A stretch of DNA of 41,043 nt from the IMG/VR virus record IMGVR_UViG_2563366998_000006; one strand, 5' to 3'. Position numbers and translations under genes: made by a program. Shown one piece after another: positions 2,686-27,241 of the stretch (positions within the stretch are counted from its first letter, which is position 1; each line of letters opens with the position of its first letter). The stretch comes from a virus. Lineage: Duplodnaviria > Heunggongvirae > Uroviricota > Caudoviricetes. The notes under the pieces are model-generated. The model worked only from the letters and a program-made list of their open reading frames with translations, was not told the DNA's origin and did no database searches.

Positions 2686-2799
2686 CGCAAAGTCTCCGCA
2701 ATTACACGCAAGAAAAAGCCGCATTGATGCGGCGATGGTAGGTCTGGATATCATTGAGCAATGAACAGGCCTCATCGAGTGTGAGGCTGTATGGCTCTA

Positions 2800-6063: not shown

Positions 6064-6327
6064 AAAAAGGACGGTACCAGCCGGAAGCAAGGGTACAAAC
6101 TGGTACCGCCAGGACTACACACAGCATAAAGTTGTGGTGCCGGGTGCCTCCCGGTGCCTGGCGAAGGTTGCACACCAGGCGGGTGGGTATCCACAGAAGG
6201 TCGACTGTCAGCCTCAACCTTAACCCGCGTGCGCTGAGCCGCATTCACCACAACGCTAAGGATTCTCTCTGGTTGAAAATACTTAGCTGTTATGTGCCTG
6301 CTTTTAGCCACATCAGGCGAGGTGGAC

Positions 6328-6394: not shown

Positions 6395-6829
6395 ATGTCC
6401 GGTAATATCTATACGCTGTACAAATCCCACTGTGAAAATGTTGGAAAGTATCGGGGCATTGAAATCAGTGGGGTAGTGTCATCAGTCGAAATAAGCAAAG
6501 TTGAATCAAGGGCAACATTACTTACTCTTCTGGACCTTGTCTTAAATGAGCACCGGAAGAAATTCGGCACACCCTATAATCAGTTGAATGGGAAAAAGGC
6601 TCTGGTTCACCTTATTCTGATGAAGCATCACTGGATGCCAAAACAGATTAATGAGATGAAATTTGATGAACTTCTTCTTTCAATTCAGGATGAACTCACG
6701 CTTGATAAAATAAGTGTAACCGCCCAGAAATTTTTAGATTATCGAGACTGGAGATCACAAATTCATCACTTTGATGATTTTGACGAAAATGAATGGGATC
6801 CTAATTTGTCTGCACAATATCTAAAGTAA
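6395..6829 (+). CDS. Hypothetical AT-rich orphan protein (accessory gene antisense to the early-left operon)
   Basis: 144-aa ORF with AAGGA RBS 7 nt upstream; visibly AT-rich compared with its neighbours; acidic C-terminus; no family recognised. Confidence 0.5.
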   Translation: MSGNIYTLYKSHCENVGKYRGIEISGVVSSVEISKVESRATLLTLLDLVLNEHRKKFGTPYNQLNGKKALVHLILMKHHWMPKQINEMKFDELLLSIQDELTLDKISVTAQKFLDYRDWRSQIHHFDDFDENEWDPNLSAQYLK

Positions 6830-7007
6830 CATCCTGTGATAAAACCGTGATTTCCTGATCCAGTTTTTTTAAGGAGTCTATTGTTTCCTGTCGATAAGAC
6901 AGCACTTCACGAAGCTGGTTTATAGCTGCCAGCTTCTTTGTCATCCACTCATAAATTTCCTCATCTGTGTAGCCAGGCGCGACGATTTTTGGTTCTGTTT
7001 TGTGCAT
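6801..7007 (-). CDS. Hypothetical small protein, first ORF of the leftward early operon
   Basis: 68 aa from the internal ATG (MHKTEPKIV...) with strong RBS GAGGAGG; 3' end overlaps the 6395-6829 gene convergently. Confidence 0.45.
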   Translation of the reverse strand: MHKTEPKIVAPGYTDEEIYEWMTKKLAAINQLREVLSYRQETIDSLKKLDQEITVLSQDVTLDIVQTN

Positions 7008-7067
7008 TTCACACCTCCTCAAGTTATCAGTTACTTGTTGATGGGGACCAGATTGTTAAAGAGCGAA

Positions 7068-7090
7068 GCGTCCTATAGGGCGCTTTTTTT
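7068..7090 (+). terminator. Intrinsic terminator-like hairpin plus T7 run
   Basis: GCGTCC-TATA-GGGCGC stem-loop (one G-U pair) followed by TTTTTTT on the plus strand. Confidence 0.5.
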
Positions 7091-7263
7091 GTTGCTAACG
7101 AATCATCCGGTCATTCATACGCCACCGGCGGCTACTTCGTGGGCGTCCTGCCTGTTCGTTTTTGACATTTACTGACCTCTTACGACACATGCACCGTGCA
7201 CCGTGTTGCAACCAGATTTTGTTGTAATCCTGTAGTTGGTCTGGAACAAAAGATAAAATTAAA

Positions 7264-7300
7264 TTGCGAGATATGCAAGTAATATTTGCGAAATATGCAA
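7264..7300. promoter_or_regulatory. OL-type operator pair (15-bp sites TTGCGAGATATGCAA and TTGCGAAATATGCAA), presumed pL region
   Basis: Two near-identical 15-bp imperfect palindromes at 7264-7278 and 7286-7300, sharing the TTGCG...GCAA pattern with the sites between cI and cro. Confidence 0.6.
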
Positions 7301-7310
7301 AACGGTGGGT

Positions 7311-7334
7311 AATAAAAAGCCACCTTTCGGTGGC
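7311..7334 (-). terminator. Intrinsic terminator downstream of cI
   Basis: On the minus strand: GCCACC-GAAA-GGTGGC hairpin followed by TTTTTATT, 20 bp after the cI stop. Confidence 0.55.
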
Positions 7335-7354
7335 CGATGGATGGGATATTGAGG

Positions 7355-8047
7355 TTAATTATGTCTCTTAAGGGTTTGCGACTGACTGATTAAGACCTTT
7401 CCAAAGACCATAAATCGGTGTTCGTTTTCGCTAGTAATTCCCCATTCACGGTAAATCTGGTTATCAGAAATCACCAGCAGTTTGTCAGGAATCATTTGAA
7501 GTCTTTTAACGTATATTTTGTCATCAAAACCAAAGACATATATACCATCACCATCAAACTGATTGATGCTGACATCAACGAAGATGAGATCTCCTGGCTC
7601 AATGGTTGGACACATACTGTCCCCACGAACGTTGATAACTTTGATGTGATTGGCTGGTCGTCCGCCGAACATTGATACAGCATTATCAGTTCTGTATTCG
7701 ATGGCATGAATCACATCAATGACATCACCGCCCTGGATAAGGCCATTTCCCGCACTGGCACTGATATCCAGCATTTCAATACGGAACACATCCTTCACCT
7801 GCGCAACATCCTCATTATTACTGTTTTTATATACAGTATTACTTTTGAGGGCAGAGGTAAAGAGATCAGCAATATCAACACCTAAGCTCTTGGCAATATT
7901 ACTCAGTGTTTGTTCGGTAAATTGTTTTTGCTTACCCGTTTCTAAGCGCGAGATGTTCGCCGCATCTACTCCTATTGCTTCAGCGAGATCGGCGATTTTC
8001 ATGTTCTTCGCTTGGCGAAGTTGTCTGACTCGGTTTCCTATGTTCAT
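7355..8047 (-). CDS. cI: CI-type prophage repressor (N-terminal HTH, C-terminal S24 LexA-like peptidase domain)
   Basis: 230 aa; HTH segment IADLAEAIGVDAANISRLETGK; C-terminal S24-like region (VRGDSMCPTIEPGDLIFVD ... KRL); divergent from cro across an operator-rich intergenic region. Confidence 0.85.
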   Translation of the reverse strand: MNIGNRVRQLRQAKNMKIADLAEAIGVDAANISRLETGKQKQFTEQTLSNIAKSLGVDIADLFTSALKSNTVYKNSNNEDVAQVKDVFRIEMLDISASAGNGLIQGGDVIDVIHAIEYRTDNAVSMFGGRPANHIKVINVRGDSMCPTIEPGDLIFVDVSINQFDGDGIYVFGFDDKIYVKRLQMIPDKLLVISDNQIYREWGITSENEHRFMVFGKVLISQSQTLKRHN

Positions 8048-8144: not shown

Positions 8145-8405
8145 ATGCAATCACCATTACGAAATGTGCGTAAGGCGCATGGTTTCACTTTGCAGCATGT
8201 TGCTGCGGGTGTTCAAGTCAATCCAGCGACGTTGAGTCGTATTGAGAGGCTGGAGCAGATTCCATCTATCGAACTTGCAGAACGTTTAGCCAATTTTTTT
8301 AAGGGTGAAGTCAGCGAAATGCAGATTCTTTATCCGGCACGTTTTCAATCTAGCCAAAACCAGAATGGGTTTAAACCACAGGAACAGGAGGTAAGCCGTG
8401 GGTAA
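8145..8405 (+). CDS. cro: Cro-like HTH regulator
   Basis: 86 aa, divergent from cI; HTH-like segment FTLQHVAAGVQVNPATLSRIER; GGAGG RBS. Confidence 0.75.
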   Translation: MQSPLRNVRKAHGFTLQHVAAGVQVNPATLSRIERLEQIPSIELAERLANFFKGEVSEMQILYPARFQSSQNQNGFKPQEQEVSRG

Positions 8406-26684: not shown

Positions 26685-27241
26685 AACTGACGCCTGTTAT
26701 TGCTGCGCTGCGTGCCCGCTGCCCGTATTTTGAAAACCGGGTGGCAGGCGCGGCACAGTTCAAAAATCTGCCGGAGGTCGGAAAGCTGAGACTCCCGGCG
26801 GCGTATGTGGTACCGGGTGATGACTCTCCGGGAGAAAACAAAAGCCAGACCGACTACTGGCAGGAGCTGAAAGAGGGCTTCTCCGTGGTTGTCATACTGA
26901 GTAACGGGCGTGATGAGCGCGGTCAGTTTGCCTCGTATGATGTGGTGGACGATGTCCGGCAGATGCTCTTTAAGGCTCTGCTGGGCTGGAACCCGGAAGC
27001 GTGCGGTAACCCGATTACCTATGACGGCGGCACGCTGCTGGATCTGAATCGTCATGAGCTGATTTATCAGTTCGATTTTTCGGTCATCAGCGAGCTGACC
27101 GAAGACGATACCCGCCAGCAGGATGACCTGAACAGTCTGGATGAACTGCGAACGCTGGCGATTGATGTTGATTATCTCGATCCCGGTAACGGGCCTGACG
27201 GCGATATCGAACATCACACCGAAATAACCCTTCCTTCCTGA
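26681..27241 (+). CDS. Putative tail completion/neck protein
   Basis: 186 aa immediately upstream of the sheath gene cluster. Confidence 0.55.
   Translation: MKLTPVIAALRARCPYFENRVAGAAQFKNLPEVGKLRLPAAYVVPGDDSPGENKSQTDYWQELKEGFSVVVILSNGRDERGQFASYDVVDDVRQMLFKALLGWNPEACGNPITYDGGTLLDLNRHELIYQFDFSVISELTEDDTRQQDDLNSLDELRTLAIDVDYLDPGNGPDGDIEHHTEITLPS

Follow-up and report, generated by a model that had tools for sequence, protein, structure and literature searches.

Candidate elements for N-independent elongation control in the leftward early leader of an SfII/SfIV-type temperate phage: an rrn-type boxA and a conserved structured RNA

How temperate phages transcribe long early operons without an antiterminator protein N is the question raised by the leftward early leader of IMG/VR record IMGVR_UViG_2563366998_000006, a stretch of 41,043 nucleotides (nt) that is called the window below. 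A temperate phage of the Shigella SfII/SfIV and Escherichia coli e14 type, it is a mosaic that combines an SfIV-like left arm with an SfII-like immunity region. For the SfV/SfII/ST64B/e14 group, this appears to be an open question, and nothing in the searchable literature addresses it. An earlier note, made from the sequence alone, had drawn attention to a boxA-like element on the leftward transcript. Here we show that the leader carries a boxA of the ribosomal RNA operon (rrn) type and, a short way upstream, a conserved 64-nt structured RNA. We consider it possible, with a probability of about 0.45, that the two form part of an N-independent elongation-control leader of the operon transcribed from the leftward early promoter pL, in which boxA and host Nus factors would act against Rho and the 64-nt RNA would be a second cis element.

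The boxA occupies positions 7065->7053 of the minus strand (DNA CGCTCTTTAACAA, RNA CGCUCUUUAACAA), 2 nt past a hairpin; in order, the leftward RNA reads AAAAAAA, GCGCCCUAUAGGACGC, UU, CGCUCUUUAACAA, UCUGG. Its 3' end lies 46 nt from the first start codon and 33 nt from the Shine-Dalgarno (SD) sequence. The window has a single exact match to YGCTCTTTAACAA, the one at 7065-7053, and 100 dinucleotide-preserving shuffles produced none. The boxA noticed earlier on this strand is confirmed; it is in the sense orientation of the pL leader and, as shown below, conserved. With up to two mismatches allowed, there are four matches in the window against 1.8 expected; the three mismatched ones are at chance level. 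The gamma-proteobacterial boxA consensus, GYTCTTTAANA (Baniulyte et al., PMC5725501), also fits the element, which is its one match in the window, and at least one match to this consensus occurred in 14 of 100 shuffles. Compared with the boxA of the E. coli K-12 rrnB leader (TGCTCTTTAACAA, read from K-12), 12 of 13 positions are identical. Two more 9-mer boxA cores (YGCTCTTTA) are found in the late region, at 18121-18129 (minus strand) and 26964-26972 (plus strand); the three matches in the window compare with 0.9 expected, seven of 100 shuffles reach three, and the late-region cores are probably due to chance.

To assess conservation, all copies of the hairpin and boxA module were collected from the fetched loci, yielding 26 distinct modules. 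All 26 share the stretch GCTCTTTAA[A/C]A without change, whereas they differ in the hairpin loop and in the linker. In each of the 26, a convergent open reading frame (ORF) ends 14-224 nt beyond boxA; these ORFs code for 64-220 amino acids (aa) and are unrelated in size. In the window, the convergent gene (6395-6829, plus strand) encodes an uncharacterized 144-aa protein (phrog_5286) equivalent to SfIV orf36, and the leftward transcript crosses it in antisense. In the SfIV paper, the products of orf35 and orf36 are counted among the unique proteins without known function (PMC3851460).

The hairpin itself is the terminator of this oppositely oriented gene cassette, as indicated by its greater strength on the plus strand, the T7 run there and the 3' end of a convergent ORF beyond all 26 copies. 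As an intrinsic terminator of rightward transcripts it spans 7065-7090 on the plus strand, with the stem GAAGCGTCC/GGGCGCTTT, the loop TATA and the T7 run. The terminator scan detected it, with nine pairs and a T-run, on the plus strand only, and the fold energy is -14 kcal/mol on that strand versus -7.2 kcal/mol on the minus strand. Read on the minus strand, it is GCGCCCTATAGGACGC at 7083->7068, flanked by the A7/T7 run at 7084-7090; this leftward-RNA version has a conserved C.A mismatch and no U-tract. Both the coordinates 7068-7083 and the rightward terminator function had been predicted correctly. A reading of the hairpin as a partner of boxA in the manner of a lambda-type boxB was rejected, given its location 5' of boxA, the C.A mismatch and the presence of boxA without a hairpin in other lineages. 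The gene at 6395-6829 ends about 240 nt before its own terminator, and its 3' untranslated region (UTR) covers the whole 68-aa first gene of the leftward operon in antisense; such an antisense 3' UTR could silence that gene in lysogens.

Upstream of the terminator and boxA, positions 7160-7097 of the minus strand encode the 64-nt structured leader RNA, which was identified by comparative alignment and covariation. Two helices are supported by covariation: P1, pairing 7160-7155 with 7102-7097, and P2, pairing 7128-7124 with 7111-7107 around the loop GGCGUAUGAAUG. Among 86 distinct copies obtained in a scan of viral contigs, 93.7% of the P1 and P2 cells are paired, versus 63.3% in shuffles, of which 0 of 500 reached the observed value; sliding the helix partner reduced pairing to 18-44%. 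Both sides change in 10 of the 11 pairs, with up to four pair types, as exemplified by the P1 variants ACGAA/UUCGU, CCACC/GGUGG and GUCAUC/GAUGAC and the P2 variants CCGGU/ACCGG, CCUGG/CCAGG and CUACC/GGUAG. A mutual-information scan of 131 distinct copies recovered P1 and P2 only, with no extra helices or pseudoknots. The single-sequence leader fold is no better than that of shuffled sequences (z=+0.8), so the structure becomes visible solely through comparison across sequences.

Between and around these helices lie several conserved elements. The core GCCCACGAAGUAGC (7144-7131) is unchanged in 108 of 127 copies found in a scan without the 14-mer requirement, and the variants cluster at the middle base of C-GNA-G; a C-GAA-G mini-hairpin is possible at 7140-7134. 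A GGC/GCC hairpin is proposed at 7152-7150 / 7144-7142, with the loop AGGAC. The loop varies (AGGAC, AGGAU, AGGAA, AUGGA, AAGGAAA), and GGA is kept in all 131 distinct copies. The stems of these two small hairpins are invariant, which leaves them as candidates only. The junction AUGA (7106-7103) belongs to a GGAUGA motif that is kept in 126 of 131 copies, about 42 nt from the loop GGA.

With the covariance model, the window copy reaches 93.4 bits (E=2e-30), and no second copy was found in the window. In a specificity control, 80 genome-contig loci matching the 14-mer yielded three real copies, all in Enterobacteriaceae. The RNA is a family absent from Rfam 15: at gathering scores, no Rfam match was found in the whole window, and at E<=10, the region 6950-7300 gave only generic terminator look-alikes on the plus strand, while on the minus strand, only the edge of a chance-level Ysr197 match (7046-7113; 10 bits, E=3.9) fell within 7097-7160.

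The distribution of the leader RNA is broad. A blastn search with the leader showed that 7165-7095 (minus strand) is conserved in phages of Escherichia, Shigella, Salmonella (ST64B, SPN3UB, SEN34), Klebsiella, Yersinia, Pectobacterium (ZF40), Pantoea, Citrobacter and Aeromonas, as well as in T5-like Providencia phages, and no RNA or regulatory annotation of this stretch is present in the matching phage records. Among 5426 complete E. coli genomes, 1459 have a match to the leader region, with no RNA annotation in the 25 matches inspected, and the RNA is represented on 41 plasmid or phage-plasmid records. The 251-nt leader query (7000-7250) is 100% identical to a chromosomal site in E. coli CFSAN061770. 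In K-12 MG1655, the e14 prophage contains a copy between ymfK and ymfJ (74.6 bits; NC_000913.3 1,202,104-1,202,184, minus strand, corresponding to 6105-6185, minus strand, of locus L132). This copy sits, unannotated, in the ymfJ 5' UTR, downstream of the ymfK repressor gene and right after a near-consensus promoter (TTGACA, 16 nt, CATAAT); further GGA motifs extend to the ymfJ SD.

The position of the RNA relative to promoters and genes is that of an early leader. A sigma-70-like promoter is found within 110 nt upstream in 40 of 94 loci versus 2 of 94 controls, and in 35 of these 40, the -10 element ends 12-26 nt before P1. The RNA begins at about +80 of the transcript in the window and in SfII-type immunity regions, and at about +5 to +20 in most relatives. 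Its usual place is after a repressor gene and terminator (SfIV, ST64B, ZF40, Aeromonas pAEv1818). In mEp237, it directly follows the promoter, upstream of kil, in the slot between promoter and kil/recombination genes that the annotated putL-like RNA takes up in HK639. In T5-like phages, which are virulent, the RNA is in the terminal repeat, as in PR1. Infection by T5 begins with the entry of this repeat, where the pre-early genes are located. The first genes after the RNA fall into 41 unrelated clusters in 92 loci, with no N-like family among them, and start 17 to about 900 nt away; these unrelated genes at variable distances point to an operon-level rather than a gene-specific role. In mEp460, a member of the Nus-dependent mEp collection, the immunity region is shared and the RNA is absent, so that phage supplies no experimental link.

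It is within the RNA that the SfIV-like arm joins the SfII-like immunity region, with SfII matches extending from 7097 rightward and SfIV-type matches up to about 7168 (7097-7168 in the window; also in loci L001 and L002); the leader RNA seems to be a shared linker at which modules recombine. A second leader motif follows the 64-nt RNA in 44 of 141 loci (for example, L005 2565-2620, L007, L009 and L010) and is absent from the window. It consists of UAACGCGCAGYAGGU, 3-6 nt, AACGUUCCGC, a short GC-rich hairpin and AAGGCA; RNAalifold on a rough alignment of this motif gave no consensus structure. In Klebsiella phage Kp4882-1, the second motif precedes a hairpin and boxA module, and there is no copy of the 64-nt RNA. 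These leaders look modular.

The boxA tracks the orientation of the leader RNA. Within 600 nt downstream of the RNA, boxA occurs in sense in 20 of 96 distinct loci and in antisense in 0 of 96; upstream, it occurs in 2 of 96. The boxA-bearing loci span independent contexts, namely, the SfIV type, L121, L033, L088/L092 and the T5-like Providencia phage PSTCR5. In PSTCR5, L033, L088 and L092, boxA follows the RNA without a hairpin, always in sense. The PSTCR5 leader RNA (L008 2019-2080) comes after a strong promoter, with a boxA (CGCTCTTTAAAAA) 11 nt later and a second boxA (CGCTCTTTAATAA) about 450 nt further downstream (about 2520). According to crude gene calls, at least one of the first two genes is convergent in 20 of 22 loci with boxA versus 55 of 93 without it. 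Strong intrinsic terminators in the 3 kb downstream are found in sense in 11 of 99 loci and in antisense in 41 of 99.

The absence of N from the group that includes SfII, SfV and SfIV is already on record in the SfIV genome paper (PMC3851460). For the window, no antiterminator N family was matched by the left-operon ORFs in Pfam and PHROGs or by the early-right ORFs in PHROGs, so the homology search suggested in the earlier note found no N in the interval. That note had also stated that no Arg-rich N-like ORF was evident there. This holds as far as N families are concerned, but an Arg-rich ORF of 38 aa with 10 Arg and a TTG start does exist at 7095-7211 (minus strand). It was included in the scans, as was the 68-aa gene, and is not a gene: of 141 distinct homologous loci, only 40 keep this frame open and have a start codon for it, and it overlaps the covarying RNA. 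The same open-frame statistics and covariation led us to reject a small-protein reading of the conserved stretch.

The secure part of this picture comprises the elements and their conservation, the structure of the RNA, the lack of N and the function of the hairpin in terminating the convergent gene. From established boxA biology, we infer Nus loading and Rho resistance. The leader contains three separable elements: the 64-nt RNA, the hairpin with the T7 terminator and the rrn-type boxA. As RNA polymerase leaves pL, the boxA RNA would bind NusB-NusE(S10), and NusA, NusG and SuhB would join to form an rrn-like, N-independent complex resisting Rho. The polymerase could thereby cross the untranslated antisense of the convergent gene and complete the left operon to xis and int, and the hairpin would be kept weak on the leftward RNA by the C.A mismatch and the lack of a U-tract. 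Beyond boxA, the pL transcript runs antisense through the convergent gene, is therefore untranslated, and is a natural Rho substrate. A boxA complex assembled from host factors alone opposes Rho and is not known to overcome intrinsic terminators. Because sense intrinsic terminators are rare and the antisense RNA is untranslated, this is a setting in which a Rho-opposing boxA complex would be useful.

The 64-nt RNA may be a second cis element, with either the elongation complex or Rho as its target, and a functional analogue of put with an unrelated structure. The RNA-based antitermination that the earlier note had offered as one option thus has a concrete candidate in the covarying RNA at 7160-7097 (minus strand), the activity of which is predicted from sequence. 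An antiterminator role for this RNA is the least certain part of the proposal and, in our estimate, doubtful. We are similarly tentative about the wider idea that the RNA represents a new cis-acting class through which, without any phage protein, host RNA polymerase would become termination-resistant or Rho would be blocked, analogous to put but with an unrelated fold, deployed in the first transcripts of N-less temperate phages of Enterobacterales and Aeromonas, including e14, and of T5-like phages, and sometimes reinforced by boxA; on present evidence, this idea leans towards the unlikely.

Several observations weigh against the proposed elongation-control role. About 80% of the RNA-carrying leaders lack a boxA within 600 nt, so the RNA and boxA are not obligatory partners, and according to the crude gene calls, convergent ORFs are also common opposite leaders that have no boxA. 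The SfIV lineage always has boxA and the terminator together, and the conservation of boxA could in part be hitch-hiking in a portable cassette. The 64-nt RNA has no similarity to put. A distance of less than 50 nt between boxA and the first start codon is likewise seen for the repressive, suhB-type boxA, and the capacity of Nus factors to oppose Rho in ribosomal RNA has itself been questioned (PMC5725501).

Two rival explanations concern boxA. By analogy with suhB, a tethered Nus complex might occlude the SD of the 68-aa gene, so that translation would be repressed and Rho would terminate, which would make the element an attenuator rather than an antiterminator. The distances of 46 nt to the start codon and 33 nt to the SD are within the 50-nt window used for repressive boxA sites, and repression has been shown at even larger distances (PMC5725501). 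However, in most other modules, boxA is followed after 14-29 nt by the end of the convergent ORF, with no sense start codon, and the distances to the next gene differ in PSTCR5, L088 and L092. A phage would also derive little benefit from attenuating its own essential early operon, and we regard this explanation as improbable. Equally low in our estimate is the chance that boxA is functionless on the leftward RNA and is conserved as a portion of the portable 3' end (3' UTR and terminator) of convergent cassettes inserted at this hotspot. This would fit the SfIV lineage, where every boxA is accompanied by the terminator hairpin and the adjoining convergent genes are diverse, as at a cassette boundary, and the looser boxA consensus arises by chance in 14% of shuffled windows. 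Yet a terminator does not need boxA, and it is the 11-nt stretch of the functional consensus that is invariant while the hairpin loop and the linker vary; moreover, boxA follows the leader RNA without any hairpin in the T5-like phage, L033, L088 and L092, and its antisense count remains 0 of 96.

The RNA, for its part, could be a post-transcriptional leader, for instance, a two-site CsrA-binding RNA linking the growth state to early phage expression or to the availability of host CsrA, or could control the stability of the messenger RNA (mRNA). The retention of the loop GGA in 131 of 131 copies despite changes in the loop, together with the second site, GGAUGA, about 42 nt away in 126 of 131, is in line with CsrA binding, as is the extension of the e14 GGA motifs to the ymfJ SD. 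The loop reads CAGGA(C/U/A)G, the CsrB repeat consensus. CsrA is reported to be able to modulate how Rho gains access to leaders (PMC4052769). Against this stand the lack of GGA enrichment across the whole window leader (5 observed versus 4.8 expected), the conserved GCCCACGAAGUAGCC core and the P2 loop, which CsrA leaves unexplained, the variable spacing to the first start codon, which ranges from 17 to about 900 nt, and the invariance of the GGC/GCC hairpin, which leaves its existence unproven. A post-transcriptional role of this kind is unlikely, although less so than either of the alternatives for boxA. A lambda-like N/nut system with an overlooked N is essentially excluded. The 38-aa ORF does have 10 Arg and is placed between the OL operators and the first gene, as expected for N. 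However, it overlaps an RNA in which the compensatory changes are at the RNA level, and besides its sparsely open frame, it has a TTG start, no evident SD by eye and no family match. The 68-aa product is acidic, coiled-coil-like and absent from most RNA-carrying loci, and there is no boxB 3' of boxA.

The proposed N-independent elongation-control leader resembles several known systems, each in part. The E. coli rrn antitermination signal consists of a boxB hairpin, boxA and boxC and involves NusA, NusB, NusE, NusG, SuhB and S4. The window boxA matches its counterpart at 12 of 13 positions (CGCUCUUUAACAA versus UGCUCUUUAACAA), a hairpin lies 2 nt upstream of boxA in both cases, and neither needs a phage-encoded protein. 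Unlike the rrn signal, the window has no GU-rich boxC, the downstream sequence UCUGGUCCCCAUCAAC lacking a UGUGUGGG-like element; the window hairpin is unrelated in sequence, weak on the leftward strand and a terminator on the other strand; and the transcript is an mRNA operon, not ribosomal RNA. The 8-mer ACAATCTG, which overlaps the 3' end of the window boxA (7053-7058), is also found in the rrnB leader (L306 336-350), where it opens the boxC region 10 nt past boxA, perhaps by coincidence.

As in lambda nutL, the window boxA is located in the early leftward leader, just downstream of pL and OL. The lambda boxA is the shorter CGCUCUUA, whereas that of the window is of the full rrn type. The window also differs from lambda in having no N gene and no second site right of cro, where neither boxA nor the RNA element was found in a search for the second boxA and hairpin pair that the earlier note had suggested. 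The sole hairpin is 5' of boxA, and none of the boxB type is present in the 3' flank UCUGGUCCCCAUCAAC. The element is not a lambda nut site. Stand-alone boxA sites have reportedly been described in the leaders of CRISPR arrays by Stringer et al. in 2020. The stand-alone boxA of the suhB 5' UTR shares with the window element the full GYTCTTTAANA outside ribosomal RNA (Baniulyte et al. 2017, PMC5725501). Like such sites, the window boxA would be expected to act via host Nus factors alone, on Rho at poorly translated RNA; unlike the suhB and CRISPR-leader sites, it is phage-borne and is accompanied by the terminator of a convergent gene and, upstream, by a structured RNA.

The closest analogy for the 64-nt RNA is put. 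HK022 putL and putR and the putL-like RNA of HK639 are about 70 nt long, are located just after pL in N-less phages and act independently of proteins (PMC9378689). The leader RNA is of the same class in size (65-75 nt) and position, right after the early promoter of an N-less lambdoid phage, and as in HK639, the window carries a left-side copy only. Homology, however, could not be established: BLAST gave no match in HK022, and the covariance model gave none in HK022 or HK639 at E<=10. The topology is also different, put consisting of two side-by-side stem-loops in a V shape and the new RNA of the closing stem P1 around internal hairpins. The two share only short strings (CGAAC-GGC, GGAUGA), in part lying in covarying P1; the shared GGAUGA corresponds to the put stem II apex, not to the RNA polymerase interface, and the put residues that contact RNA polymerase (U28, G35, 59-64) have no evident counterparts. 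Given the lack of homology and the different topology, membership in the put family was rejected.

The cI-like repressor gene (7355-8047, minus strand) is followed by an intrinsic terminator at 7318-7335 (minus strand), found in the terminator scan and annotated in SfII as a putative rho-independent terminator. Two OL operators, TTGCATATTTCGCAA (7300-7286) and TTGCATATCTCGCAA (7278-7264), were read from the minus strand, and their TTGC..GCAA repeats recur at OR, between cI and cro. The putative pL was assigned by eye on the same strand, with the -35 element TTGCAT (7278-7273), a 17-nt spacer, the -10 element TATCTT (7255-7250) and a start near 7243; it was missed by a strict promoter consensus scan. 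Between pL and the RNA, the 7-mer CACGGTG is tandemly duplicated (7192-7205, minus strand) and is present as a single copy in SfII. On the right side are cro (8145-8405, plus strand), a cII/YmfL-like gene (8398-8949, plus strand) and a Q-like late antiterminator gene detected in family scans (13261-13632, plus strand).

The first leftward gene has the SD GAGGAGG at 7020-7014 (minus strand), starts with ATG at 7007, extends to 6801 and encodes the 68-aa protein (phrog_1744), which is uncharacterized and not Arg-rich. From pL (about 7243), the operon proceeds through this gene (7007-6801) and several uncharacterized genes to xis (2775-2467) and int (2489-1419), a length of roughly 5.8 kb to xis and int. 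A terminator-like hairpin with a T-run (GCCGCATCAATGCGGC TTTTT) is present on the sense strand at 2718-2733 (minus strand), within the first part of the xis ORF and ahead of int; possibly, it is an internal left-operon terminator that read-through would need to overcome.

We found no report of the boxA or the leader RNA of these phages in Rfam 15, in the GenBank/RefSeq annotations examined or in the searchable literature, where neither the core sequence string nor boxA in combination with SfV, e14 or ST64B led to relevant work. For the N-less group as a whole, the locus supplies two cis-element candidates, a host-type boxA at the entry to the antisense gene and a structured RNA outside Rfam 15, and the e14 copy makes the latter directly testable in K-12. 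Should the RNA prove to target the elongation complex, put would no longer be the sole phage family of antiterminator RNAs that work without a protein, and this would be only the second; should its partner be CsrA or some other host factor, early phage expression would be coupled to host physiology. Either way, the leader RNA merits recording in genome annotation.
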